The notes: generated by a model from the sequence alone, not told the origin. 64,000 nucleotides of DNA from a virus (IMGVR_UViG_3300038425_000083:12069-76068), one strand, 5' to 3'. Shown: positions 25,945 to 56,417, counted from the first letter of the stretch. Made by a program: numbers and translations.

Positions 25945-27615
25945 ATGGGCTTATTGGACAGATTTTTTAAGACAAGACTTGCAGCCGAAGTTGCAAAAGT
26001 AGAAGAACGTATGATTGGAGTATCAGAGTCAAGAGCACTTGAGAAGGCCAAAGAGATTCATCAAGTTTGGCTTGATGACTTAAGCAAGTCGAATGATGCT
26101 CAGCCAAAAACTCTTTTGCATGATCCTTTCCAGTTGCTCGAGTCGATGGGATACAAAGAACGTCCTATGATGATAACTTATGATACACTTAGGACTATGT
26201 CTGAAAGAAACCCGATCATAGCTGCAGTCATCAATACAAGAGTTAACCAGATTGCTGCTTTCTCGTCTCCTCCGAAGACTAAGTACGATATTGGTTACTC
26301 GGTAGAGATGAGAGATGACGAAGCAGAGCCCACGATTGAAGACGAGCGAAGGATGAAAGAGATCGAGAGCATGCTTGAGAATACCGGTGTTACTTCTTTG
26401 GCTCCTGAGGAACGAGATGACTTTGATTCTTTCTTAAGAAAGTTAGGAAGGGATTCATTGACCTTTGACCAAAGCTGTTTTGAAATAGTAGATGGTCGTG
26501 GAGGAAAGCCTGTTGCTTTCTATGCGGTTGATGCATCAACTATACGTCTTGCGACAACTCCTAAATACATGAAGGATGTTAGGGACTTTACTCTTCAAGA
26601 CATTGGCCCGGAACCTCAAAGATCAAAGGACACAAGATATGTTCAAGTTATAAGTGGAAAGGTTGTAAACACTTATACGGAAGATGAGATGTCTTTTGGT
26701 ATTCGGAACCCAAGAACAAACATCAAGCAAAATGGGTATGGGACTGCCGAGCTGGAGATTCTGGTCAATACGGTAACGGCTCATCTATGGGCAGAAGAGT
26801 ACAACCGAAGATTCTTTAGTCAAGGTAGTGCTCCTAAAGGGATTATACATTTTGAAGGTAACGTTCCAGAGAATCAATTACTTGCTTTTAGAAGACAATG
26901 GCATGCTCAAGTTATGGGAGTCTTTAATGCTTGGAGAACCCCTGTTATTGCGGCCCCGGCTAAACTTCAGTATACAAATCTTCAGATGTCTAACAGACAG
27001 ATGGAATATAGTAACTGGATTGATTATTTGATCAAACTGATTTGTGCAGTTTATCTTATTGATCCATCTGAGATTAATTTTGAACTAAGAGGCGGAGCCC
27101 AGTCTCAGGAAGGCCCACTGTTTGAAAGTCATTCAGAAACAAAATTGAAGATGAGCCGAGATCGTGGCTTAAGACCTTTCTTAAAGTTTATTCAATCTTG
27201 TATTAACAAGGACTTGATTTTTAGAATAGACCCAAGATATGAAATGAGGTTTACAGGATTGGATGCCAAGACCGAAGAGCAAATGTTAGAGTTAAGAATA
27301 AAGGAGATCACGAACTACAAGACCATAGATGAAGTTAGAGCTCTTGATGACCTGGAAGCTCTTGGCCCGGAGAGAGGTGGCGACTTGATCATGAATCCTT
27401 CGTATATCACATTCATGACACAGAAAGCTATGGCTCAGCAAATGGGCGGTGGTGGCGGAGCGATGCCTGGTAAAGAAGGAATGGACTTTGGAGAAGAGGG
27501 TCACGGATACGAAGGTATTGATTTTGGTGCCGAAGAAGGAATTGATTTTGGAAATCCAAATGTGGAACATCCAAATAAACTTGACTTCGGAAGGGAAGAG
27601 AAGGGACAAATCTAA
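25945..27615 (+). CDS. phage portal protein
   Basis: IIAAVINTRVNQ, RDSLTFDQ, FYAVDASTIR, RNPRT..GYG..ELE, NRRFFSQG..PKGII, YLIDPSEINF, DRGLRPFLKFI..IN, TIDEVR: motifs typical of SPO1/A511-type portals. Confidence 0.92.
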   Translation: MGLLDRFFKTRLAAEVAKVEERMIGVSESRALEKAKEIHQVWLDDLSKSNDAQPKTLLHDPFQLLESMGYKERPMMITYDTLRTMSERNPIIAAVINTRVNQIAAFSSPPKTKYDIGYSVEMRDDEAEPTIEDERRMKEIESMLENTGVTSLAPEERDDFDSFLRKLGRDSLTFDQSCFEIVDGRGGKPVAFYAVDASTIRLATTPKYMKDVRDFTLQDIGPEPQRSKDTRYVQVISGKVVNTYTEDEMSFGIRNPRTNIKQNGYGTAELEILVNTVTAHLWAEEYNRRFFSQGSAPKGIIHFEGNVPENQLLAFRRQWHAQVMGVFNAWRTPVIAAPAKLQYTNLQMSNRQMEYSNWIDYLIKLICAVYLIDPSEINFELRGGAQSQEGPLFESHSETKLKMSRDRGLRPFLKFIQSCINKDLIFRIDPRYEMRFTGLDAKTEEQMLELRIKEITNYKTIDEVRALDDLEALGPERGGDLIMNPSYITFMTQKAMAQQMGGGGGAMPGKEGMDFGEEGHGYEGIDFGAEEGIDFGNPNVEHPNKLDFGREEKGQI

Positions 27616-42676: not shown

Positions 42677-43015
42677 ATGAAAAAGAAACCAAAAAGTTTT
42701 TTAACCTTTGAAAGTTTTAGGGATAAGATAACTGTTATTTCAAGCATCTTGCTTATATTTGGTATGCTATTTGCAGCATGGATGTTTCTCGATAATAGAT
42801 ATGCCCAAAAGAAAGTTGAACAGAAACTGGATTATGTAAAATATAGCCTGCAGTTTCAAATGAACAACGATAAGATTTCGACATTGATGTCTTTGTACCC
42901 AAAAATAGAAACTGCTGATCCAGTCGTAAAGCAGCAACTTCAAACTTATATGGATACAAAGTTAGAACTCGTCCGTAAGATGGAAGTTTTAGAAAAGTTG
43001 GGGATAGGTCTATAA
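42677..43015 (+). CDS. single-TM coiled-coil protein
   Basis: TM segment then LDNRYA and coiled coil; TAATG-coupled to MuF. Confidence 0.6.
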   Translation: MKKKPKSFLTFESFRDKITVISSILLIFGMLFAAWMFLDNRYAQKKVEQKLDYVKYSLQFQMNNDKISTLMSLYPKIETADPVVKQQLQTYMDTKLELVRKMEVLEKLGIGL

Positions 43016-46000
43016 TGCCAAGGGTAAGGTTTGAACCTTTAAAGATAACAACTCTCTACGAAGAGAAAGTTGCTCAAAGCGTTAAGGATCGCTATAAGAG
43101 TCACATTAATAGAGAATCCCTTCGTCTCGTAAGTAACATCACGGATGACATGAGGGATAGGATTGCTGGATTAATGCACGAGGGTATTGACGAAGGTAGG
43201 TCAGTTAGTGCAACTGCCAGCACACTTCTTAAGACTGGTCTGGACAAAGGAGTTTTTAGATCGGCAAGACGAAGAGCCTATCTCATATCAAGAACTGAAT
43301 TACATAGAGCAAGACAACAAGGAGCTTTTGATCTTTATAGAGCAAATCATATTGATCTTGTTAAGTGGATTGCCATAGGAGATGAAAGAACATGCGATAC
43401 GTGTGCACCCCGAAACAACCATGTTTATAGGCTTAGCGAGATAGAGGGAGACTTACCGCCTATTCATCCAAGATGTAGGTGTAGAGTTGTGCCTTCAGAT
43501 TTTCAACTCGAGATAAGTGTTAGACGTGATCGAAGAGGAAAGATAATGGAAACAAGAATTTCTCCAACTCCTCAGAACTACAAATACTATGTGAGTCTTG
43601 ACAGGAAGCCAAGAAGACGAGTTAAGAAGTCACTCGAGAAGGCTGTTTCAGTCAGAGCATTTACAAGGTACGTTCCAGGCAGAGGGTTTCAAAGATATAA
43701 ACAGTTTCAAAGGGATGTAGCTGTTATTGATAAACCTGTTCCAAGGGATTTTTCATATGAGATAGCTAACTCTGGGGAAGATGTAGCAAATAAGATTGAG
43801 GAACGAAGAGAAGGAAAAGTTCGAGCTACTTATGCCGTTAATGCGGTTAGGGCTTGGAACATGGAAGCAAAAAATAAGTATCCTAACACTAATTATCTCG
43901 GTGACGTTGGCGTTAGAGAATGCTTACAAAATAGTTTGGATGCGGTCACAGAATCTTTAGAAAAAGGAGAGATAAAGAGGGGCAAGATCGAAATAGAACT
44001 TACTCCTCATAAAGAAAAGTACTCTGTCAAAGATAATGGAATAGGAATGTCCGATACAGACATTCGTGACAAGTTCCTTGCTCTTTACGGAACAGGGAAA
44101 GATATCAAAGGTAGATTCGGAGGATTTGGAATCGCTAAGGCTGTTATCTTGGCTCCTTCTGAAAGTTCACATTGGCAACTCAAAACAAGAGATAATTTCT
44201 TTGATGACAAGATGGCCTCTGCAAATGATCAGATTAAAGCCATTCCAAAAATTCAAGGAACACAAATTGATGTTTGGGCAGGGGAGGATATTGTTAGCGA
44301 AGATGCCAAGAAATATGTGGAGACGACTGAAGTTCCTAAAAATATAGGTATAAGATTTAAGTGGGCACTTGATGATTGGGAAACTTTAAAGAATCCTTTT
44401 CTGAAATTAAAGAGTGAAGTAAGTCATACTACGGCAAAGGGTTCTGAAATAACAATGTCTTTCTTTCCAAGACCGCCATCGGAATACAGAAATCATATGA
44501 TTTTGAGACTTGTTGACAAAAAGACCGGGGCTAAATTAACTCAGGCCATAAACCCTATATTTGGAGATTTTAAAGGGGCTTTAGTTGTTGATATAGAAAC
44601 AAGTGCAACCCCGGGCTCCGGTGGATATCCTCTTACCGATTCGAGAATGGGATTGAAGTGGGGAGAAGTTCAAGATTTTGTTAACACAGAAATAAGTCAA
44701 AGAACAAGAGAAAAGAAATCAGCTGAGCGAGTTGGTCAACAAGAGAAGTGGCTGGACTTACCGGAAGTTCCTGGCTGGAAAGATACTCTCGAGAGAATTA
44801 AAACAGATACAGGTTATGCATATCTTAAAGACACAATAGATAAAATTTGGCAAAAAGATTTTGTGTCGCAACATTTAAAAGGTATAGTATCAACAGATAT
44901 AGGAGAACAACCTTTTACCTCTCTTGAAAATATAAAGATACTTAGGGATGTTGGCTTTAAAGGTTCGGATGGCGGGACTGTTGCTCAAGCAAAGTTGATG
45001 CTGGCATTTGAGTCTTTAGCTCAGATGTATTCACAAACTTTGCAAAAAGCTGGTATGCATTGTCCGTTGTTTGGATTTCATGCTCTGTTGTCTAAAGCTA
45101 CATCGACCGGAGTGAGACTTGCACATTTTAGCAGACAAGAACATACTTTAGGTTTGGATATTAAATCTTTTCCTAAGAGTGCTTTCGCAAGTCCGGTTAG
45201 TCTTGCCTTAGAAATGGTCAACACTATTCAGCATGAGTTCACTCATAATTGGAGGAGGGAACACGACGAAGGTTTCACTTCTCAACTTGGGCAAATACAA
45301 ACGGTAACAGCGCCCTTATTTAATAGGGCTTTAGAGGTTGCAGGAGCGCTTCTCGGCAAGGATACCAGAATAACTATAGATACACCGCAAGGAATAGAAA
45401 AAATCAAGAGAAGCCATATTTGGACAATAGGAGAAAAACCAAAACAGCCTGAATGGAGAGCAGAACTTTTTCAGTTGTACAAGGAGATAGGGGGAAAGTC
45501 AGGAGCGACTGCAGTTTACAAGATTGCTGAAAAATATAACATTCCAGAGAAACGTGTAAGAATGGTTCTTGCCGGATACAAAGCGGCACAAAGCCGAAAG
45601 GAGAAGAAAGATGTCACTAAATCCATTACAGAAAGCAGCGTTGGATTCCGAGGCCCCGAGAGAACAAGTCATCCAAGGTTTGTTATCCAACTTGATAAAC
45701 GATTGCCTGATGAAAGCAGGGATCGATCCCAATGGGCCGATAGCAGGATCGATGCGGAAGCTGGGACAGGACGTTTGGGACTTGAGGGACGCTCTGGAAG
45801 AAGAGGGTTATTGGTAATAGAGAAAGCCAGATCTCACAAGTATCTCAGAAAAATACCGAGAGGATCGGGAAGATATGAATATATCTATCAGAGACCAGAT
45901 GTAGGTTTTCACGGAACCACTTCTAAGTTTTTAGAAACTATTCTTAAAGAAGGTTTAAGAAGTTCAAAAGATACCGGAGTTGCGTTGTATAGTGGAGAAT

Positions 46001-49000
46001 CACAATTTGGCCCAAAAGCTAAGAGATATGGAGTTTATTTCGCAAAAACTCCGGAAAGAGCTTTTGGTATTGCTGAAGTGGCAACAAAAAAATTTGGTGG
46101 GAAGCCTGTAATTTTTATTGCTAAAGTTGATCCTAAAAAAGCAGAATCGGATGAAGATTTTGCAGTTGTCTTGGGTGATCTCTTTCGTGATATTTCTCGA
46201 GACAAACCTCCTCTTTTAACGGGTAATGAAATTAGGCAGCGTCTCAAGGATTATAAATTAAGCTATGGGGAGACCTATTATATACCGCAAGATACGCAAT
46301 ATAGATTGAATACGTTATCTGACGGAAAATTGGAACGTCTGTACGATAATTGGCGGAAGGGAGGTTCTAAAGCGATAGATGAGGAGCTCACATCCAAAGA
46401 TAGTTGGAAAATATTTGGGAGTGCTGCATTTCCTGGTGATAAGCCAGAAGATATCAGAGCTGCTATTTTTTGGGATTGGGCTGAACATAAATATACAAGA
46501 ATAGGATCACCTTTTGAAAAGAAATTAGATAAAGCTTTAAGAAGGTTAAACTTAAGAGAAGTAACTAAACTTCCAGGGGCCCACGTTGTTGAAAATCCGG
46601 CCTTTATAAAAGCTTTAGAAGAGTTTGGATTCTTTGCGACATCTACCGGACTTTTGAAATCAGTTATGGGAGAAGATTTAAAGAAAGCCAGAAGCTATGT
46701 AAGATTCAGACATGGGAAGTATGAGCATGTTAAAGGATGGTCTGGAAAACCAAGATTATTTGATTTATCATCAGAGGACAAAATTCACCGTTATCTTCTT
46801 GACGCATCTTCCCCTGAAATAGAAAAAGCACTTCAAGTAGTTCAGGAAATACATGCTGTCGGTGGGCAAACTTTATTTATTGGAGGTTGCGTTAGAGATG
46901 CTTTGCTTGGCAAGAAGAGTAAAGATATCGATCTTGAAGTTTACAATGTGAAACCGGAAGAAGTTCGAGCAATTCTTGACCGAGCCGGAAAAGTAGATCA
47001 GGTAGGAAAGAGTTTTGGAGTTTTTAAACTCTCTTTTCCCGGAATGGAGGCTATTGATGTAGCCATTCCAAGAAGGGAAAGTAAAACTGGCAAAGGACAT
47101 AAAGGATTTATGGTAGATCATGATCCTTCAATGACTTTCAAGGAAGCTGCGGGACGTAGAGATTTAACTATCAATGCTTTGGCATACAATCCTATAGAGG
47201 ACAAGATAATTGATGAATATGGAGGCCTTCAGGACATTAAGGACAAGATATTAAGAGCTACAAACCCAGAAACCTTTGGAGAAGATTCATTAAGAGTATT
47301 GCGAGTTATGAGATTCGCTGCCCAGTTAGAATTCTCTCCGGATTTTAATCTTGCATGGCTTTGCAGGCAGATCGATCTGACCGATCTTCCAAAGGAGAGA
47401 ATTTTTGGGGAAGTTGCTGGAATGCTTCTTAAAGCAAAGAGACCAAGTATAGGATTAAGATTGATTCACATACTTGGAATTAATAAGATTCTCCCAGAGC
47501 TCGATGAACTTAAAGGAACAGAACAGGATGAGAAATGGCATCCTGAAGGGGATGTATGGGAGCACACATTATTGGCGGTAGACGAAGCCGCCAAGATGAA
47601 GAAGCAACTCGCAAATAATCAAGATAGACTGGTTTATATGCTTGGCGTCCTATGCCATGACATGGGAAAGCCAGAAACAACAGATGTTAATGAGGAGGGG
47701 AGAACAATCAGTCATGGGCATGACGAGATGGGAGCGAAGGTAGCTCAGGATTTTCTTGGAAGATTAACTGACGAGACAGATATTTTAGAAAGAGTTGAAG
47801 GTTTGGTAAGACATCACATGAGACCTACCTTCTTCTTTCATGACAAGGTTCCGGATTCAGCTATTAGAAGACTTGCAAAGAAAGTCGATATTCCAATGCT
47901 CCTTATGGTATCGGCTGCCGATAAATCCGGTAGAGGGGATAAAGACATTGATCTAAGTGCCGAGAGATGGATGATGAGAAAGTTCAAGAATCTAAAACTC
48001 GCACATCCTGAAACTCTCGAGCCGAAAGTCATGGGAAGACATCTCATTCCATTAGGCATTAAACCTGGCCCGGAGATGGGAAGAATTCTAGACAAGATTT
48101 ACAATGCTCAGCTGGAAGGTAAGTTTGAAACCACAGATGCTGGTTTGGAATATGCTAATCAGCAAGGATGGTTAAAGACAGAAGAAGATACTGTCATTAA
48201 AGCTGTTCCCGTTAAGAAACTTATAACAAGTAGAGGGAAAACTTTTCTCCATACTTACTATGAAAATAGAAGTGGCTTAGGCCCCGGATTTTTTGCAGGA
48301 GCCGAGCCTTTGGTTGTAAATAAAATGTCTTTCAAGCAAAGTGAGGATCAGAAAAGATGGGGAGAAGAAGTTGTTCTTGTTGATGTTTCTAAATTTGATG
48401 CTGAATGGAGTAAAGACGAAGGATTTTATATTTCTTCTTCTGGAAAGAATGAGATTAGCAATAGGAGAGAAAAATTCCAAGAGTTTCTCAAAACTGGAAA
48501 GCCTATTATAATGCCTTCGGTCTCTGTAAGAGATATCGGATCGAGGGGTCTTATAGGTTTTACAAATGGAAGACATAGATTTGCAGTTCTCAGAGATATG
48601 GGCTTTACAGAAATTCCTGTATCTGTGGATGCGAAATCTGCGAAGATGGCAAAGGAACTCTTTAAAGCCCCAAGTTTAAAGGAGAAACTGGAAGCGCAAA
48701 ATTACTGGTGGAAAACCGTTGCCGGAGGAATCGAAAGCAAGTATGAGGGGGTTAAAATAGTTTACGCAGGAAAGAAGACATCTGAAGGGTTTACCCATAC
48801 TTATGCAGATGAGCAGTTCCAAGATGCAATAGATATGATTCCGGAAGAGCATAGGAAGCTTATTGATTCAGTGATTCTTGAGCCTGGGAGTGTATTGGGT
48901 GAAGATGGCAAAGCTGAATTTGGTCGTGTTTTTGAAGGAACAAGTTCTATTCACATATACCGTGGGGTTCAACTTCATGAGTATGGAACCAGTTTTGAAG

Positions 49001-49707
49001 AACAGTTTGCCCACGAAGTGGGACATTTGGTAGCACGAAAAGTGTTTGGAAGCATAGAAGCTGAGAAGTGGGGCGATGTTATTAAAGGAGAGAATCCTGT
49101 TTCTCATAGAGGTAGAGAAAATGCTGCAGAAGATTTTGCAGAAACTTATTCTCTTTATCTTAATGATGAATTAAATAAGGATGATTATCCACAGAGATAT
49201 AAAGCAATAAAGAATATAGTAGATAGGGCAAGGAAGCCCAGAAAAGTTTCAAAATTAAAATGGGAAGTCAAAGATTTGAAAGATGAGTTTGAAGAGAAGA
49301 CTCCTTTGCTTCATACTACTTATGACAGATTAGCTGCAGGTGGGAAAGCTAAATATACTTCGAAGCCAAGTCCTGAAGCTGAAGCCGCTTTGAAAAAATT
49401 ATTTGGGAAGGGTATGGTGATAGATATGGTAAAATCCAGAAAGAAGATAGTTGAAATGAAAAAATCCAGACTCGAGAATAAGTTTGTGCCTCACAAGATA
49501 GATGGAAAAGTTTCATGGGTTAAAGTTAAACATGGAGGCATGCTTGTTAAGAGTGCTAAACTTATCCAAGTCGGACAAGAGATTTTAGCCAAGTCTGGTT
49601 TAGCTACAATAACTGCGGTCGGGAAAGATGGAGTTACGGCAAGAACATCTAAAGGAGATAAAATACTTCTCCTTATGAAAGATGTTCTACCTTATGTAAG
49701 AGGATAA
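43015..49707 (+). CDS. 2230-aa MuF-headed polyvalent polyprotein: MuF, GHKL ATPase plus zincin, ART-like domain, CCA-adding/HD enzyme, ParB-like domain, zincin, SH3-like domain
   Basis: MuF ISRTE..W..GDERTC..PPIHPRCRC; ECLQNSLDA/DNGIGM/GGFG; HEFTH; FHGTT..GL..GVYFA; GGCVRD/DIDLE/RRDLTINA/EDSLR/HPEGDV.EHT/HDMGK; NGRHR; HEVGH..EDFAE. Confidence 0.9.
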   Translation: MPRVRFEPLKITTLYEEKVAQSVKDRYKSHINRESLRLVSNITDDMRDRIAGLMHEGIDEGRSVSATASTLLKTGLDKGVFRSARRRAYLISRTELHRARQQGAFDLYRANHIDLVKWIAIGDERTCDTCAPRNNHVYRLSEIEGDLPPIHPRCRCRVVPSDFQLEISVRRDRRGKIMETRISPTPQNYKYYVSLDRKPRRRVKKSLEKAVSVRAFTRYVPGRGFQRYKQFQRDVAVIDKPVPRDFSYEIANSGEDVANKIEERREGKVRATYAVNAVRAWNMEAKNKYPNTNYLGDVGVRECLQNSLDAVTESLEKGEIKRGKIEIELTPHKEKYSVKDNGIGMSDTDIRDKFLALYGTGKDIKGRFGGFGIAKAVILAPSESSHWQLKTRDNFFDDKMASANDQIKAIPKIQGTQIDVWAGEDIVSEDAKKYVETTEVPKNIGIRFKWALDDWETLKNPFLKLKSEVSHTTAKGSEITMSFFPRPPSEYRNHMILRLVDKKTGAKLTQAINPIFGDFKGALVVDIETSATPGSGGYPLTDSRMGLKWGEVQDFVNTEISQRTREKKSAERVGQQEKWLDLPEVPGWKDTLERIKTDTGYAYLKDTIDKIWQKDFVSQHLKGIVSTDIGEQPFTSLENIKILRDVGFKGSDGGTVAQAKLMLAFESLAQMYSQTLQKAGMHCPLFGFHALLSKATSTGVRLAHFSRQEHTLGLDIKSFPKSAFASPVSLALEMVNTIQHEFTHNWRREHDEGFTSQLGQIQTVTAPLFNRALEVAGALLGKDTRITIDTPQGIEKIKRSHIWTIGEKPKQPEWRAELFQLYKEIGGKSGATAVYKIAEKYNIPEKRVRMVLAGYKAAQSRKEKKDVTKSITESSVGFRGPERTSHPRFVIQLDKRLPDESRDRSQWADSRIDAEAGTGRLGLEGRSGRRGLLVIEKARSHKYLRKIPRGSGRYEYIYQRPDVGFHGTTSKFLETILKEGLRSSKDTGVALYSGESQFGPKAKRYGVYFAKTPERAFGIAEVATKKFGGKPVIFIAKVDPKKAESDEDFAVVLGDLFRDISRDKPPLLTGNEIRQRLKDYKLSYGETYYIPQDTQYRLNTLSDGKLERLYDNWRKGGSKAIDEELTSKDSWKIFGSAAFPGDKPEDIRAAIFWDWAEHKYTRIGSPFEKKLDKALRRLNLREVTKLPGAHVVENPAFIKALEEFGFFATSTGLLKSVMGEDLKKARSYVRFRHGKYEHVKGWSGKPRLFDLSSEDKIHRYLLDASSPEIEKALQVVQEIHAVGGQTLFIGGCVRDALLGKKSKDIDLEVYNVKPEEVRAILDRAGKVDQVGKSFGVFKLSFPGMEAIDVAIPRRESKTGKGHKGFMVDHDPSMTFKEAAGRRDLTINALAYNPIEDKIIDEYGGLQDIKDKILRATNPETFGEDSLRVLRVMRFAAQLEFSPDFNLAWLCRQIDLTDLPKERIFGEVAGMLLKAKRPSIGLRLIHILGINKILPELDELKGTEQDEKWHPEGDVWEHTLLAVDEAAKMKKQLANNQDRLVYMLGVLCHDMGKPETTDVNEEGRTISHGHDEMGAKVAQDFLGRLTDETDILERVEGLVRHHMRPTFFFHDKVPDSAIRRLAKKVDIPMLLMVSAADKSGRGDKDIDLSAERWMMRKFKNLKLAHPETLEPKVMGRHLIPLGIKPGPEMGRILDKIYNAQLEGKFETTDAGLEYANQQGWLKTEEDTVIKAVPVKKLITSRGKTFLHTYYENRSGLGPGFFAGAEPLVVNKMSFKQSEDQKRWGEEVVLVDVSKFDAEWSKDEGFYISSSGKNEISNRREKFQEFLKTGKPIIMPSVSVRDIGSRGLIGFTNGRHRFAVLRDMGFTEIPVSVDAKSAKMAKELFKAPSLKEKLEAQNYWWKTVAGGIESKYEGVKIVYAGKKTSEGFTHTYADEQFQDAIDMIPEEHRKLIDSVILEPGSVLGEDGKAEFGRVFEGTSSIHIYRGVQLHEYGTSFEEQFAHEVGHLVARKVFGSIEAEKWGDVIKGENPVSHRGRENAAEDFAETYSLYLNDELNKDDYPQRYKAIKNIVDRARKPRKVSKLKWEVKDLKDEFEEKTPLLHTTYDRLAAGGKAKYTSKPSPEAEAALKKLFGKGMVIDMVKSRKKIVEMKKSRLENKFVPHKIDGKVSWVKVKHGGMLVKSAKLIQVGQEILAKSGLATITAVGKDGVTARTSKGDKILLLMKDVLPYVRG

Positions 49708-50314: not shown

Positions 50315-50646
50315 TTATCTACAAAGCTAAGAAGAAGTTATCCAAAGCTTTAAAAGGAAAGCCTAAATCTGAGGAGATGAAGAGAAAGATATCTGACTTT
50401 TTTAAGGGTAAATCTCTTTCGGAAGAGTTAAAGAAAAAGATGAGTGAAGCTCATATGGGCAAGCCTTGGAGTGAATTCAGAAAAGTTAGTTACTATCGTC
50501 ATTCAGAAGCGACAAAGAAAAAGTTATCCGATGCCATTAAAGGAAAATGTTGTTCTGAAGGAGCAAAGAGAAAAGTGTCCGAATTTTGGGCAAAAAGGAG
50601 AAGAACCCAATGCGAAAATCGAAATCTGACAGTGGTTTGGAAATGA
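50311..50646 (+). CDS. NUMOD3-repeat DNA-binding protein (homing-endonuclease remnant)
   Basis: repeated GK..SEE.K.K(I/M/L)S; no nuclease domain visible. Confidence 0.75.
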   Translation: MIIYKAKKKLSKALKGKPKSEEMKRKISDFFKGKSLSEELKKKMSEAHMGKPWSEFRKVSYYRHSEATKKKLSDAIKGKCCSEGAKRKVSEFWAKRRRTQCENRNLTVVWK

Positions 50647-51494
50647 TTAAAAGCTTTAAAATCAAGGAGTTACGAAAGTTTTTTGTAAGACGTATTGCAG
50701 CAGTTGGGGATTTACATTTGATGTCGAGGTATTCATTATTTCCTCCGGAGTTTGAGACAGAACAAGGAAATATATTTAAAGCAAGTCCGGGGCAACAACA
50801 AATATGGGAATCTTATCAAAACTTTCTTCATGTTTGTGATGAATGGGAGGTCGATACAGTTCTTGTTGCATCTGATTTGGTTCATGGACAGAATGCAAAA
50901 GAAAGAGGAATGGGTCTGATAAGCACAAACATGAATGAACAAATTCAGTTAGCAGAGCTAACTTTGAGGCCTCTCCTTAAAGGAAGGGAGTCTCACTGGG
51001 TTAGTGGATCGGGATACCATAACTCTGTTCAGGGAATGTATGTTGAAGAAGAACTTTGCACGAAGTTGGGAAAGGAGAAGGACATAACTACAAATTGGTA
51101 TGGCACCGTAGCAAACTTAAAGGTTAAGCCTTTCGATAAGATAATCAATTTAACTCACGGTGGTGGAAGAGCGATGTATTATCGAGAGACATTGGCTGCC
51201 AGAGAAATCATTTATGGTAAGGTAGCAGAAGTTAATCAAAAACTTCCAAGAATTGATATGTATGTTCATGGTCACTTCCATTGGTATTGCTACATGCATC
51301 AAGGGAATGTCCATCATTTACAATTACCAGGATTTACTGCTTATGAACCGGTTCCGATATTCACCCCTTCTTACACAAGGGCCCAGCCAGACATTGGGGG
51401 AGCTCTAATTATGTTTGATCAGAGCGGAAGAATCACGGTTTGGCACTTCTTGTATCCTCTTCCTCATATTAGCGATGAGGTGACAGGGATTTAA
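50643..51494 (+). CDS. calcineurin-like metallophosphoesterase
   Basis: GDLH, SDLVHG, SGYH, THG, GHFH. Confidence 0.75.
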   Translation: MIKSFKIKELRKFFVRRIAAVGDLHLMSRYSLFPPEFETEQGNIFKASPGQQQIWESYQNFLHVCDEWEVDTVLVASDLVHGQNAKERGMGLISTNMNEQIQLAELTLRPLLKGRESHWVSGSGYHNSVQGMYVEEELCTKLGKEKDITTNWYGTVANLKVKPFDKIINLTHGGGRAMYYRETLAAREIIYGKVAEVNQKLPRIDMYVHGHFHWYCYMHQGNVHHLQLPGFTAYEPVPIFTPSYTRAQPDIGGALIMFDQSGRITVWHFLYPLPHISDEVTGI

Positions 51495-52132: not shown

Positions 52133-53680
52133 ATGGAAAAAGGCGGATGCGGAGCGATAGAGAGGGACTTTAGTTTTTGGATGCCTCTTGAAGTAGTTAA
52201 GGGGCAGAAGGGCGAAATGAGAATTGGAGGGATAGCTTCCGATGAAGAGTCCCATGATCTCCAAGGTGAAAAAGTTTTTGTCGATGGTTTAGATACTTCA
52301 TATTTGCTTCAAAGAGGTGCTTTTAATTGGGATCATCTAAAAGGCCCAGAAGATATACTTGGCGAGATTGATACTGTTCAAAAGCAAGAAAAGAAGCTTT
52401 ATGTTGAAGGTTTTTTATATCCCAAAGTTAAGAAGGCCATTGATGTATTCGATTTGATGCAATCTCTTAAAGAGTCTGGTAGTAATAGGAAGTTAGGGCT
52501 CTCCTTGGAAGGTAAAGTTAAAGAAAGAGATGAAAAAGATGCTAAGGTCATAAAAAAGGCCTGGATTAAGAACGTTGCCATAACATACAACCCAATTAAT
52601 CAAGGTGCCTGGGTTGATATGATTAAATCGTTGGGAAACTTTACTTTTGATAGTTGTGATAAAGACTGTTCCCGTTGTCCATTATGTGAAGCCAAAAAAG
52701 AAGTTAAATTGGAGCCGGTTAAGAAGGCAACAGCAACGCCTCCTTCTTTTATAGTTCAGGACGGTATCAAATACTATCCAAAAGATTTTGGTGAGTTAAA
52801 GAAAGCTGGCGAAGGTGGAACAAGTGGTTCCGGAGGAGCTGCTCCTGCACCGCCACAAAGTGGTGGTCTTGCTGCTGGACATGATAACCCGGCATCGTCC
52901 GGAGGGATTAGTGGTTCGGCTCTTAGGAGACAATCCTTAGATAAGAAAAAGAAAAAGACGACTTACGATGAAGAGCATGTAGGTCAGAAGGTTGAACCCG
53001 AGAAGTCCGAGACAGACAAGAAGAAAAAGAAAAAGATGACTAAGTCTGAAGTCTTTGAGTTTATTAAGTCTGAGGGAAATTCGGAGGATAGAGCTAATCT
53101 TCTTACTGATTTAGTATTTGCAATGATTGAAGTTGCACCGATCTTAGCAAAATCCAGCGAAGGAGCCAAGAAAGCTTGGATAACCAGACGTAAAGGTTTG
53201 ATTTCTCTTGCTCAGCAAAAGAAAAAGAAGAAAGACCCAAGAGATACCCCTGAATTTTGGGAAGAACGATACGGAAAGAAGAAAAAGGGTGCTGATGTTA
53301 GAACAACTGGAAAGGGAGTAACTCCAAGTCCTATTTTAAGTGTTAAAGAAAAGGAAGATTGGAAGAGGCATTCAAAGATGCCTAAGAAAGTACAGAAGGA
53401 AGCACCTAAAGAACTTGCTCCGACAGGGACAGCCAAACTTGTTGCTCATGAAATTCATAGAATAACTTCCATGTCTGATAAGGCCTTACTTAATCGAGCT
53501 ACCAAGATTACCGATCCTAATAAAATGAAGAACTTTTATCTTGCTGCAAAGTTGAAAGGAAAAGGCGATTTAGCCGGAGCAATAATTACTGCCGGTGGGA
53601 GAATTGGTATTAACCCGCATGAATTTGGTACTAATGCCAAAGAAACTACTAAAGAATTCCGAAGACAACTGTCGGCGTAG
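52133..53680 (+). CDS. prohead (capsid maturation) protease with long C-terminal extension
   Basis: DLQGE..GLD..GAFNWDH..LYVEGFLY..LGLSLEG..NVAITYNPIN; position before scaffold and MCP. Confidence 0.88.
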   Translation: MEKGGCGAIERDFSFWMPLEVVKGQKGEMRIGGIASDEESHDLQGEKVFVDGLDTSYLLQRGAFNWDHLKGPEDILGEIDTVQKQEKKLYVEGFLYPKVKKAIDVFDLMQSLKESGSNRKLGLSLEGKVKERDEKDAKVIKKAWIKNVAITYNPINQGAWVDMIKSLGNFTFDSCDKDCSRCPLCEAKKEVKLEPVKKATATPPSFIVQDGIKYYPKDFGELKKAGEGGTSGSGGAAPAPPQSGGLAAGHDNPASSGGISGSALRRQSLDKKKKKTTYDEEHVGQKVEPEKSETDKKKKKKMTKSEVFEFIKSEGNSEDRANLLTDLVFAMIEVAPILAKSSEGAKKAWITRRKGLISLAQQKKKKKDPRDTPEFWEERYGKKKKGADVRTTGKGVTPSPILSVKEKEDWKRHSKMPKKVQKEAPKELAPTGTAKLVAHEIHRITSMSDKALLNRATKITDPNKMKNFYLAAKLKGKGDLAGAIITAGGRIGINPHEFGTNAKETTKEFRRQLSA

Positions 53681-53689
53681 GAGATAACA

Positions 53690-53893
53690 ATGAAGCGAGA
53701 CGAAGCAATAGCTTATTTAAGAGGCCAGAATTATTCAAGAAGATTAAGTGCTAAGTTAGCTGATATTGCTTTGCTTCGTAAGACAAATAGTATTTTTGCT
53801 GATGCTATTAAGTCGGCACTTGAGAAGGCTAAGCCTAAGAAAAAAGGAAAAAAGATTAAAGGCCAGGATAAACAAGGTAATTTAGGATGTTAA
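53690..53893 (+). CDS. small basic head-module protein
   Basis: MKRDEAIAYLRGQNYSRRLS resembles MTKSEVFEFIKSEGNSEDRA in the protease; LEK|A then Lys-rich tail. Confidence 0.6.
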   Translation: MKRDEAIAYLRGQNYSRRLSAKLADIALLRKTNSIFADAIKSALEKAKPKKKGKKIKGQDKQGNLGC

Positions 53894-54159
53894 CCGAACA
53901 AGATAAGGTAAACATTGAATTTGTAAATAAGTATTTCGAGAAAGCTGGGGTTCCTAAAGGACTCAGAAAGTGGGTAGGGGAACATGGGTTTAATGAGTGC
54001 GTTGCTAAGCTCTCCGGCAAAAGAGGTATTGATAGTGCAAAGGCTGTTTGTGGTAGTTTGAAAGGCAAAGCAAGAGAAGCCGGAGAACTAAAACCCAAAC
54101 ATATGGGGCGGATCGAGAAGCAGAAATATTTAAAACGAAAAAAGACTAAAAAGAGTTAG
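53887..54159 (+). CDS. small basic head-module protein
   Basis: YFEK|A then FNECVAKL..AKAVCGSL. Confidence 0.6.
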   Translation: MLTEQDKVNIEFVNKYFEKAGVPKGLRKWVGEHGFNECVAKLSGKRGIDSAKAVCGSLKGKAREAGELKPKHMGRIEKQKYLKRKKTKKS

Positions 54160-54211
54160 ACGTATATATAGACGTGAGGATACAGTCCAAAAAAGGCGGT
54201 GTTATAAAAGA

Positions 54212-54907
54212 ATGGCAAAAGAAGAAGAAAAGAAAGAAGAAAAAAAGGAAGATTTGAAAAAGGTCGATGAGAAGATTGAAAAGAAAGAGCCCGAGATCAC
54301 TGAGGACGAACTTAAGAAATCTCTCAAAGACTTAACTGACATTATCAAGGCTGGACGTGCTCCCGTAGTTACCGAAGAAGAGGAAGAGGACGAAGACGAG
54401 GAAGAACTTGAAGAATCCTTTACCGGAAACTTTGAAGAAAACGAGACCATTGCGAAAGCTATTGAAGTGTCTGACTTCCTTGCCGATCTCGTAGAACAGA
54501 CAGAGACATCTCTGGAAGCTGTTGGAAAATTGGTTAAATCACTTCAAAAATCTGAGGAAGTTTTCGATCAGAAGTTCGTTGATGCCCTTGGAAATATTTC
54601 CAAGAAATTTGACGACATGGATGCTCGTCTAAAGAAAATTGAAGATACACCAGTTGCCGCAGGACCAAAGACAATTCAGAAGTCGGTTCAGAAGATCGAA
54701 AAATCATTTACGGCTTCCGGGAAAGAGGTTGAAGGAACAGATGAGTTAGCCGCTTTACCGAAGAGACAGGTCATGGCCCTTTTGGAGAAAGCAGTTGCAG
54801 ATAACAAGATCAAAGATTCAACGTTATTTGCTTACGAAGGATCGCCTGGCGTGTTTAAATTTAATAGTGAGGACGAAGAAATCCTCAAGTCCTATATCAA
54901 GAAGTAA
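54212..54907 (+). CDS. capsid scaffolding protein
   Basis: acidic/coiled-coil protein between protease and MCP; nine (L/I)xK|(S/A) sites. Confidence 0.78.
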   Translation: MAKEEEKKEEKKEDLKKVDEKIEKKEPEITEDELKKSLKDLTDIIKAGRAPVVTEEEEEDEDEEELEESFTGNFEENETIAKAIEVSDFLADLVEQTETSLEAVGKLVKSLQKSEEVFDQKFVDALGNISKKFDDMDARLKKIEDTPVAAGPKTIQKSVQKIEKSFTASGKEVEGTDELAALPKRQVMALLEKAVADNKIKDSTLFAYEGSPGVFKFNSEDEEILKSYIKK

Positions 54908-54920
54908 AATAGGATTCTCT

Positions 54921-54948
54921 CACAGGGTTTTAACAACCTGTGTTTTTT
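54921..54948 (+). terminator. terminator-like hairpin between scaffold and MCP
   Basis: CACAGG...CCTGTG followed by TTTTTT. Confidence 0.45.
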
Positions 54949-55004
54949 AGATTCAAAATTTTTGAAATACGGATACTTCCAAAAAAGGCAGGTGTAATAA
55001 AATA

Positions 55005-56417
55005 ATGATCTCAATGAAGGACTACGAGCAGACTGATGGTTTTGGGATGGCTACCTGGGAAGAAGTTGCAGAGTTGAACAAGGCTCTTGCTGCGGGCTAT
55101 GATATTCCTGCTACGTCAGGAGGTATCAGCGGTTCCGCTTTAAGGGTTGAGTCACTTGAATCTTCTTTGAAGGTGATCACTTACCAAATGCAACACATTA
55201 AGTTCTGGCAGAAGATCCCCAAATTGCCTGCTTATAGTACCGTTGAAGAGTACAACCAGTTGACTTCTTATGGTTCAGAAGCTGGTGCGTTTACTCCTGA
55301 AGGAGAACTTGGTGAATTCGATGATGCTACTTATCAAAGAAAGGTTTCATTAGTGAAATACCTCCAAACCGTTCGAAAAGTTACCCATCCGTTAACATTG
55401 GTTAGGGCAGCTCACGGCGACGTTGTAGGAAATGAAATCCGAAATGGTATCATGTGGTTAATCGGAAAAATCGAGAACTACCTATTCTGGGGAAACAGCA
55501 AGCTGAGACCTACGGGTGCAGAGGGTTATGAGTGGGATGGAATCAATATTTTGATTGATCCCTCTATGGTGATTGATGCTAAGGGAGAACCCCTTGGAGA
55601 AGACATCTTAGAAAGCGCTTCTAACACTATTGTTGAAAACTACGGTTTTCCAACTGATATCTTTATAGGTACAAGGCCGTTGGCGGATTTAGCTAAAGTA
55701 ATGTTCCCTAAAGAAAGGATAGTTGTTCCTTACAAGGAAGGTCAAGTTGGTGTGCCTTTAAATACCTTCGCTTCACAGGCTGGTATTTTGGCATTCAATC
55801 CTGACGTTTTCTTGAAGAAGAAGGCTTGTCCTGTTGCTGCCACTTCAGGCAAAGCACCTACCGCACCCTCAAGTGTTACTATAGCACAGCGAACAACTAC
55901 AGGGCTGGGAGGCGATTGGACGAAGACTGGCAACGCTTATGGAACTTACTACTATGTTGCAACATACGGAAACAGATTCGGAGAATCAGCTCCATGTGGT
56001 GTTCAGCACAATGCAAATGCTGCAATCACAGCCGATACTGATGAGATTACTGTAGCAGTTATGACAACTACCTATTCGATTGCTCCCGATTACGTGAACA
56101 TCTATAGGTCAGTTGCCAATGATGCAACTGGTACAAGATATCTTGTTTATTCAGGCCCGGTTGATGATCCCGGAACAAGCACGACCGGTAAAGCATGGGT
56201 TGATGTGAACGCTATCTGTGCTAATTGCCATAAAGTATTCTTGGGCGAGTTAACTCCTCAAGTTATTGCTTTTAAACAGTTAGCCCCTATGATGAAGATG
56301 GATTTGGCGGTTGTTGAGCCAAGTGTCCGTTGGTTACAATTACTCTATGGAGTACCTCAAATATATGCTCCTAAAAAGTGGATTATAATCAAGAACATTG
56401 GTGAAGCTTCTGTTTAA
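55005..56417 (+). CDS. major capsid protein (SPO1/A511/K-like)
   Basis: ELNK|ALAAG..GSALRVESLE, IPKLPAYSTVEEY, IE..LFWG, EWDG, Fn3-like insertion (YYYVAT..NRFGESAP), QLAPMMKMDLA..WLQLLYG.P..YAPKKW..IKN. Confidence 0.92.
   Translation: MISMKDYEQTDGFGMATWEEVAELNKALAAGYDIPATSGGISGSALRVESLESSLKVITYQMQHIKFWQKIPKLPAYSTVEEYNQLTSYGSEAGAFTPEGELGEFDDATYQRKVSLVKYLQTVRKVTHPLTLVRAAHGDVVGNEIRNGIMWLIGKIENYLFWGNSKLRPTGAEGYEWDGINILIDPSMVIDAKGEPLGEDILESASNTIVENYGFPTDIFIGTRPLADLAKVMFPKERIVVPYKEGQVGVPLNTFASQAGILAFNPDVFLKKKACPVAATSGKAPTAPSSVTIAQRTTTGLGGDWTKTGNAYGTYYYVATYGNRFGESAPCGVQHNANAAITADTDEITVAVMTTTYSIAPDYVNIYRSVANDATGTRYLVYSGPVDDPGTSTTGKAWVDVNAICANCHKVFLGELTPQVIAFKQLAPMMKMDLAVVEPSVRWLQLLYGVPQIYAPKKWIIIKNIGEASV

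Follow-up and report, generated by a model that had tools for sequence, protein, structure and literature searches.

Candidate prohead-protease junctions between the modules of a 252-kDa MuF-led polyvalent phage protein

The widespread polyvalent proteins of phages and conjugative elements, MuF-fused effectors among them, carry two to fifteen unrelated effector domains per polypeptide (Iyer, Burroughs, Anand, de Souza and Aravind 2017; PMC5512222). For the release of these enzymes after injection, self-cleavage by embedded zinc peptidases is the only proposal so far. The same question is raised by a viral sequence, IMGVR_UViG_3300038425_000083:12069-76068, of which 64,000 nucleotides were analysed (the window; the final 64 kb of one 76-kb contig, with genes all on one strand). 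Positions 43015-49707 of the + strand form a single open reading frame (ORF) for a MuF-led protein of 2230 amino acids (aa), 252.3 kDa and isoelectric point 9.3. Its modules meet at Lys-Ser/Ala sites with short basic tags. We were interested in how such a protein could be divided into working units. The best explanation, to which we give a probability of about 0.6, is that the prohead protease of the phage cuts the junctions of a head-packaged effector polyprotein. The putative scissile bond is marked ↓ below.

Module limits and Lys-Ser/Ala sites

The sequence-only reading had described one MuF-led ORF of about 250 kDa, and this was borne out. The MuF family PF04233 was matched at aa 50-158 with 47.2 bits (Pfam cut-off 29.6), minor-head PHROGs also matched, and all tag positions previously given were correct. 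Two contigs on record encode the identical 2230-aa protein; the ORF is therefore no assembly chimera. From the proposed domain list, MuF, GHKL, CCA/HD, ParB and the two HExxH motifs were recovered, but the ART-like and SH3-like domains remained weak. The parts of the protein are as follows.

43015..49707, +, whole ORF, MuF-led polyvalent protein, 2230 aa, 252 kDa
43015..43641, +, module 1, MuF (SPP1 gp7-like), aa 1-209, PF04233 at aa 50-158
43642..43713, +, basic hairpin-type tag behind K209, net charge +5 over 25 aa
43642..45825, +, module 2, GHKL ATPase and zincin 1, aa 210-937, HATPase_c_3 and HEFTH
45826..46686, +, module 3, possibly ART/Tpt1-like, aa 938-1224, ends at K1215↓S and K1224↓A
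46687..48201, +, module 4, class II CCA-adding head and HD, aa 1225-1729, ends V-I-K1729↓A
48202..48666, +, module 5, Osa/PFIN-like ParB/Srx, aa 1730-1884, ends L-F-K1884↓A-P-S
48667..49464, +, module 6, zincin 2, aa 1885-2150, HEVGH at aa 2000-2004 (49012-49026)
49465..49704, +, module 7, basic hairpin and small beta-barrel, aa 2151-2230, hairpin at 49486-49527
43627, 43639, 45823, 46657 and 46684, +, tag Lys codons of K205, K209, K937, K1215 and K1224
48199, 48664, 49432, 49462 and 49549, +, tag Lys codons of K1729, K1884, K2140, K2150 and K2179

Whether these sites are more than chance was considered first from their number. K[SA] occurs 37 times in the ORF against about 28 expected, and h-x-K-[SA] (h, hydrophobic) 21 times, or 0.9 per 100 aa, a density like that of other ORFs. 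Raw K[SA] frequency was thus rejected as a meaningful signal, being ordinary and not enriched. Such figures are what would be seen if K, S and A were simply common and the tags were a pattern imposed on a Lys-rich protein. The positions of the sites argue otherwise. Module limits were set without the motif, from BLAST end-points against 12 relatives, from standalone homologues and from an AlphaFold model of aa 1730-2230 (46-sequence alignment, mean predicted local distance difference test (pLDDT) 75), and the limits so obtained coincide with the tags. MuF matches in nine relatives end at aa 197-255 (median 215), CCA matches start at aa 1211-1222 and end near aa 1740, homology of the ParB module ends at aa 1882-1884, and matches to the C-terminal unit start at aa 2122-2138. 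Standalone ParB and zincin-2 homologues begin or end at K1884, which the model places in a loop directly behind the final helix of the ParB domain; a hairpin and a low-confidence linker follow K1729. K1224-A1225 is invariant in 12 sequences.

The same coincidence was found family-wide. In an all-against-all comparison of 13 family members, 53% of 702 end-points lay within 10 residues of h-x-K-[SA], compared with 16% for random positions, and 42 of the 55 well-supported boundary clusters lay within 12 residues of such a site (about 19% by chance). Several boundary clusters lacking a site are intein insertions; the CCA/HD module of P0010 and P0011 is broken by inteins (Pfam matches to LAGLIDADG and Intein_splicing), which explains module boundaries that have no K↓S/A site. 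When hairpin cores were located by a regular expression that used no upstream residues, 27/31 had K[SA] within 12 residues upstream, against a background of 14.7%, and the remaining four look spurious. Moreover, tags are confined to the terminase-protease interval of the 76-kb contig, with zero matches in the reverse-strand control. In unrelated phage loci, the matches of the hairpin-core pattern without the K[SA] requirement all looked spurious and hardly any had K[SA] upstream, and the pattern requiring it gave none beyond the sister contig. Given this coincidence with independently set limits, the invariance in relatives and the enrichment before tags, composition has next to no chance of being the explanation.

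What sets the sites apart is their context, in which K↓S/A stands between a leader-like strand and an interchangeable basic tag. Module 1 ends in the leader-like strand Y-K-Y-Y-V-S-L (43579-43599), followed by K205↓S and K209↓A, and the tag behind K209 is a looser version of the hairpin tag of the family. In the disordered tail of module 2, R-F-V-I-Q-L-D-K (45676-45699) is leader-like and precedes L-L-V-I-E-K937↓A (45808-45825). Module 3 starts with an HKY tag (45826-45891), module 4 with a hairpin tag (46687-46743) ahead of the CCA-adding head domain, and module 5 with a predicted beta-hairpin tag (aa 1731-1750). Some of the listed sites, K2179 and the many in-domain K[SA], are unlikely to be junctions. 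The sequence-only reading had K2140 and K2150 between the HEVGH zincin and the SH3-like domain. Homology puts the start of the C-terminal module near aa 2076, so that these two sites are internal to it and precede another hairpin and the barrel; K2179 and K2193 fall in the barrel region.

The capsid-protein site and the prohead protease

The ORF lies in a head block with the portal gene upstream and the genes for protease, scaffold and capsid protein downstream (52133-56417). The last three bear on the question of which enzyme could cut.

52133..53680, +, prohead protease, 515 aa, presumed cutting enzyme (phrog_1028, E 4.5e-39)
54212..54907, +, scaffolding protein, 231 aa, with 9 h-x-K-[SA] sites
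55005..56417, +, major capsid protein, L-N-K26↓A27, K codon at 55080-55082

The capsid protein is 42-47% identical to its best-matching Herelleviridae capsid proteins (Bacillus, Lysinibacillus), and the N-terminal ~180 aa of the protease are 35-40% identical to Herelleviridae prohead proteases. The capsid-protein L-N-K26↓A27 aligns exactly with V-V-K24↓S25 of phi812. Of the phi812-type capsid protein the PDB has two forms, the precursor of 463 aa (5lii_P) and a chain of 439 aa (9row_B) that begins at S25, behind V-V-K24. SPO1 gp6.1 (9vel) has A-L-N-K↓A, and 29 divergent capsid proteins, with identities as low as 31%, retain L-x-K↓A. The window thus resembles the Herelleviridae maturation systems (5lii, 9row, 9vel) in its capsid protein (31-48% identity), its protease (35-40%) and the retained h-x-K↓S/A. 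A K↓S/A specificity of this protease lineage is plausible because the capsid-protein maturation site is homologous to that of phi812. The scaffolding protein is the densest carrier of h-x-K-[SA] in the window (9 sites in 231 aa).

The protease itself bears, in its C-terminal half, its own K↓S with a basic tag and a copy of the N-arm of the capsid protein. Protease aa ~246-271 (52868-52945) copy aa 28-52 of the capsid protein (55086-55160), a stretch of about 25-35 aa of the mature N-arm that reads L-A-A-G-x-D-x-P-A-x-S-G-G-I-S-G-S-A-L-R-x-x-S-L; the copy is present also in the protease of the sister phage (L012:16609-17871). By imitating contacts of the capsid protein, this copy may hold the protease in the procapsid. 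A PDB sequence search with the protease gave no significant match.

The steps of the proposed process can be put together as follows. The MuF domain would bring the polyprotein into the procapsid, by analogy with SPP1 gp7 and Mu F. Behind it are six cargo modules: GHKL-zincin, the HGT-motif module (perhaps ART-like), CCA-adding/HD, an Osa-like ParB nuclease/NTPase, the second zincin, and the hairpin with beta-barrel. Each junction has three parts, namely a hydrophobic strand ending the upstream unit, an invariant Lys with Ser or Ala, and a basic tag (beta-hairpin or HKY). The Herelleviridae-type prohead serine protease, which would trim the capsid protein at L-N-K↓A, most likely cuts the junctions too during head maturation. 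The predicted fragments are about 24.5, 82, 33, 57, 17, 30 and 9 kDa, with a basic tag expected at each start. Once free, the modules would be ejected together with the DNA at infection, and their early targets would be the RNA, DNA or defences of the host.

Under the proposal made for polyvalent proteins by Iyer et al. (PMC5512222), in which release by embedded zincins is predicted and no junction grammar is described, the cuts would be made by zinc peptidases, embedded or co-packaged, and not by the prohead protease. The ORF has two zincin domains of its own, and at least two relatives without an internal zincin have a GHKL-zincin ORF on their contigs (P0167 with P0011; P0169 with P0008). 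However, five tagged relatives have no HExxH motif in cis, which weakens the embedded-peptidase idea, and about 20 small tagged ORFs also have none. The same K↓S/A site is found in the Herelleviridae capsid protein, which is matured by the prohead serine protease. We therefore see only a slight chance that the zinc peptidases cut the junctions.

Cutting of cargo by a prohead protease has precedents. The capsid targeting sequence of T4 IPI-III and Alt is cut by gp21 at I/L-x-E (Mullaney and Black 1996, cited in PMC12991175). The present system is like it in that an N-terminal leader of about 8-10 residues stands on unrelated cargo and ends at a prohead-protease consensus shared with the capsid protein; here too a prohead protease is encoded and the cargo sites share the consensus of the capsid site. 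The window differs from T4 in having Lys instead of Glu at P1, a protease of the Herelleviridae type, a leader reused internally so that one gene would give several cargo units, and a basic tag retained behind the cut. In phiKZ and SPN3US, many head-internal proteins are cut by the prohead protease at a single consensus motif, some at several sites, and cargo is ejected into the host (PMC10052503, PMC7411985, PMC5694885). Those cuts were shown by mass spectrometry, whereas the cuts proposed here are predicted from sequence. The cut proteins also lack a MuF lead and are not built as mosaics of known enzymes joined by exchangeable tags. The cut motif in phiKZ and SPN3US is small-x-E, compared with h-x-K↓S/A here.

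Junctions and tags in relatives

In the relatives P0003-P0014, MuF, CCA/HD and the hairpin-barrel constant at the C-terminus are accompanied by other cargo (Acb1-like 2H phosphoesterase, RadC/JAB, ART-PolyVal, PBECR, inteins). Their junctions have the form [LIV]-x-[EK]-K↓[AS], followed by one of several basic tag types. The upstream hydrophobic strand has the consensus [YF]-V-I-[LIF]-[EK]-K, and takes the form Y-x-Y-V-x-L-x-K at the end of the MuF domain. At least four dissimilar tag types were distinguished, all behind K-[SA] and all basic (+4 to +6 over 25 aa). One domain carries different tags behind the same E-K↓A (module 3 homologues; P0004), and orthologous proteases carry different tags in the same slot. 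The tags are therefore interchangeable, with K-[SA] and the preceding hydrophobic strand constant.

The GHKL-zincin, HGT-domain, ParB and zincin-2 modules exist elsewhere as separate ORFs. The GHKL-zincin pair, which has no tag inside, is a separate ORF in P0167-P0170 that matches aa 256-848 and ends at ...YVIKLN and a stop. Module 3 has homologues in the standalone ORF L012:6207-6737 and in aa 303-404 of P0004; the junctions are in register, and the N-terminus of the L012 homologue aligns on L-L-V-I-E-K937↓A. Zincin 2 has the standalone homologues P0020, P0022 and P0023. Standalone ORFs start either with M-x-Y-V-I-L-E-K↓S and a tag or with the tag right behind Met (M-R-S-H-K-Y compared with K↓A-R-S-H-K-Y). 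In the syntenic IMG/VR contig L012/L092, ORFs begin with M-N-Y-V-I-L-E-K↓S or A and a hairpin, and about a dozen unrelated ORFs of the window and L012 share the start M-x-[YF]-V-I-L-E-K↓S/A. The ORFs of P0167-P0169 consist of a Cys-rich Zn/Fe-chelating domain (PF03692), x-L-E-K↓A with a hairpin, and then GHKL-zincin. Their last residues are ...[YF]-V-[IV]-K-L-[NG], which places the leader-like strand at a C-terminus.

The sequence-only reading had called the MuF ORF the best internal support for its main hypothesis and had linked the tag grammar to a protein class of the head. Membership in the MuF class does argue for a head location. As support for cutting, the ORF was overrated, because the capsid-protein site and the fission and fusion of modules are stronger evidence.

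Several points weigh against a cut at the junctions. Of the 21 loose-motif sites, about one in two falls on a conserved core residue of a folded domain, such as K375 (GHKL glycine box), K1473 (CCA core), K1271 and K1332; the loose motif being common, a site is not defined by sequence alone. The boundary between zincin 2 and the C-terminal part (aa ~2074) has no canonical site within 60 residues, and there is no tag behind K1884. The invariant Lys could have a part in structure or binding and not mark a scissile bond. The mature N-terminus of phi812 was taken from a deposited chain, not from a publication. Ordinary tryptic proteomics cannot reveal a cut behind Lys; for the same reason, such processing may be overlooked in cultured relatives. 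Large virion proteins can also be packaged uncut, for example N4 vRNAP (PMC5512222).

In the absence of cleavage, the junctions would be capsid-addressing or spacer peptides, and the 252-kDa protein would be packaged and ejected whole. Docking of the cargo, whether on scaffold, capsid or portal, would then be the task of the strand, and DNA binding that of the basic tags. N4 vRNAP, ArdC and TraC1, which are transferred uncut (PMC5512222), are precedents, the tags are indeed basic, and the leader-like strand is found also at the C-termini of standalone ORFs, where a cut would be needless. On the other hand, K-[SA] is constant before at least four unrelated tag types, it is the maturation site of the capsid protein in the same genomes, and tags at true N-termini begin at the position of the predicted neo-N-terminus. 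We consider transfer of the whole protein, docked in this way, unlikely.

The junctions could instead be conserved shuffling seams for cassette recombination between polyvalent genes, with no role in processing. Mosaicism in the relatives is extreme, with modules exchanged exactly at junctions, and there is an analogy with the seams that precede the tips of polymorphic toxins. The junction DNA was compared with its surroundings. Its identity was 0.58-0.61 (0.25-0.5 at third positions), not above that of the flanks; conservation is therefore at the protein level, and the junction DNA was rejected as a recombination hot spot for want of excess identity. The junctions also head single-domain ORFs and occur inside the protease itself. 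This idea, which is compatible with cleavage and does not exclude it, has a small chance of being right as the whole explanation.

If the prohead protease does cut the junctions, a wider claim would be possible, which we put forward tentatively and hold to be rather less likely to be true than false. In Herelleviridae-type heads, the six-residue hydrophobic strand [YF]-V-I-L-E-K, K↓S/A and any of the interchangeable basic tags would form a portable address-and-cut code that suffices for loading of an arbitrary protein into the procapsid, release from a polyprotein and delivery to the host along with the DNA. By the same code, and with the same reserve, MuF polyvalent proteins would be true polyproteins whose units are set by the code and not by embedded peptidases. 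If true, the junction code would give a simple rule for recognising capsid cargo among phage proteins and for deriving the starts and sizes of the mature units, and cargo would be predictable from sequence in uncultured phages. It would explain the movement of modules between separate genes and fusions, and with its help phage heads of laboratory strains could be loaded with proteins of choice.

The spread of the grammar was also followed. When IMG/VR was scanned without bias for the pattern of the canonical HKY tag, 74 loci were obtained, many with the same portal, protease and capsid-protein family. In the loci of the same head family, 38/42 tags had K[SA] upstream or started at Met, and the capsid proteins had L-N-K↓A. 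In 185,579 reference genomes the HKY pattern gave 5 matches, all in metagenome-derived assemblies, with no cultured host or prophage among them, and short-peptide tblastn of the HKY junction against cultured phages returned noise only (E~10). A grammar general to Herelleviridae was rejected, as it is not present in about 50 loci flanking capsid-protein genes. The flanks of capsid-protein relatives in IMG/VR (Herelleviridae-like head modules, not otherwise classified) have no leader/tag grammar except in the sister contig and one HKY-tag lineage. The cargo system is, as judged from this distribution, a lineage-specific addition. Pfam gave no family for the tags (window copies and canonical HKY copies), the literature searched contained no stated Herelleviridae cleavage consensus and no described junction tag, and no description of a repeated junction grammar matching the capsid site was found in Pfam, Iyer et al. 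or that literature.

In L150, L165, L166, L209, L211 and L214 (IMG/VR), the HKY tag stands directly behind [LIV]-K (K↓H-K-Y) and not behind K-[SA]-x-x; in at least four of these loci (L150, L166, L211, L214) the portal match is only distant, at about 21-25% identity. This subset may be a variant register of the same site. A second tag of about 18 aa, helix-like, reads S-S-E-G-A-K-K-A-W-E-T-R-R-x-G-G-S-H and is always behind Lys. It has about 17 copies in 11 ORFs including the protease (window 413-53150), none of them in the MuF protein.

491, 3366, 3777, 11229, 12606, 14250, 14872, 28510, 37918 and 53150, K codons of the second tag, examples

Cargo modules and genome setting

By its sequence, the 2230-aa protein belongs to the polyvalent class. 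It holds at least 8 unrelated domains in 7 modules of one polypeptide, and its gene is placed among packaging and virion genes (portal, protease, scaffold, capsid protein). It is like the proteins of PMC5512222 in its many unrelated effector domains, MuF lead, head-gene location and predicted delivery with the DNA, and in the hub domains zincin peptidase, ParB (Osa/DdrB-like) and possibly ART. In contrast to them, K↓S/A and a basic tag head every module here, and the site matches that of the capsid protein. With CCA/HD and GHKL, the range of cargo is extended; PMC5512222 contains none of the words "linker", "CCA" and "GHKL". The Dar proteins of phage P1 (DarA, DarB, DdrB, Hdf) are likewise large multi-domain anti-defence proteins with morphogenesis-linked head loading, and DdrB is proteolytically processed (PMC5512222). 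Unlike the ORF, they are encoded by separate genes, are loaded in order and lack a MuF lead, and a repeated junction motif is not reported for them.

The assignments of GHKL, CCA/HD, Osa-like ParB and the two zincins are supported. In module 2, HATPase_c_3 was matched at aa 300-378 (28.4 bits; Pfam cut-off 25), and the G-G-F-G-I-A-K box of the GHKL module is kept in homologues. Zincin 1 has HEFTH at aa 740-744 (45232-45246) and, besides the motif, only a weak WLM match. A PDB sequence search with the GHKL-zincin segment found no significant match. In module 4, PolyA_pol (aa 1288-1414, 82.5 bits) and HD (aa 1514-1605, 38.7 bits) both exceeded their Pfam thresholds, and aa 1286-1695 are a tRNA nucleotidyltransferase by PHROG (phrog_2244, E 2e-72). 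The confident domain of module 5 in the AlphaFold model (aa 1766-1884, pLDDT about 95) matched 4o7k by Foldseek, the plasmid fertility-inhibition ParB/Srx protein Osa (E 6.8e-4). PF22162 was matched by 13/37 homologues of this module; the window's own sequence had no direct Pfam match. Its G-R-H-R (48565-48582) is invariant in 37 sequences.

Zincin 2 combines HEVGH with a downstream A-E-D-F-A-E, and Foldseek gave matches to M34/PPEP zincins; an ATLF match on this segment had E 8e-4. In the model its fold reaches about aa 2074 and is followed by a disordered stretch (aa 2078-2116) and then by low-confidence helices with K2140↓S and K2150↓S. All related MuF polyvalent proteins share module 7 as their C-terminal end, with K2150 and K2193 nearly invariant. 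The module was modelled as a hairpin (aa 2157-2172) and four strands (aa 2189-2220, pLDDT 78-87), and the model weakly suggests an SH3-like identity for the barrel.

For module 3, an ART-like identity is likewise weakly suggested. Behind the HKY tag come an H-G-T motif (45904-45921) and a G-V-Y-F-A motif (46030-46047). The Pfam match to PTS_2-RNA (Tpt1/KptA) stayed below threshold (15.3 bits against 26, E 0.021), and Atlas matches to PARP and Arr, with scores of 0.88-0.89, are leads only. The AlphaFold model from a two-sequence alignment was unusable (pLDDT 42). No match to the ART-like segment was found among PDB sequences, by a word-based search in proteins of 152-487 aa, or by jackhmmer over all collected sequences.

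By its head genes, the source phage is an uncultured relative of the Herelleviridae head lineage. Megablast of the ORF against phage records gave no nucleotide match to any deposited phage, and tblastn of the whole protein against phage records found relatives by the CCA part only. About 15 kb separate the portal gene from the MuF gene and hold ORFs with leaders and tags.

25945..27615, +, portal protein, head-block gene

A metallophosphoesterase-like ORF and small Zn-ribbon ORFs lie between the MuF gene and the protease, conserved in the window (50586-51494) and in L012:15401-16264.

The set of cargo modules points to RNA, DNA and signalling defences of the host as early targets. It includes the CCA-adding/HD enzyme, a possible 2'-phosphotransferase-like domain and the Osa-like nuclease, with Acb1-like 2H phosphoesterases in relatives. 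In P0003, P0005, P0007, P0008, P0012 and P0013, modules like Acb1-type 2H phosphoesterases or 2'-5' RNA ligases stand beside CCA/HD. These 2H modules, together with the Tpt1-like hint in module 3, suggest a virion-delivered RNA-end repair or anti-CBASS activity.

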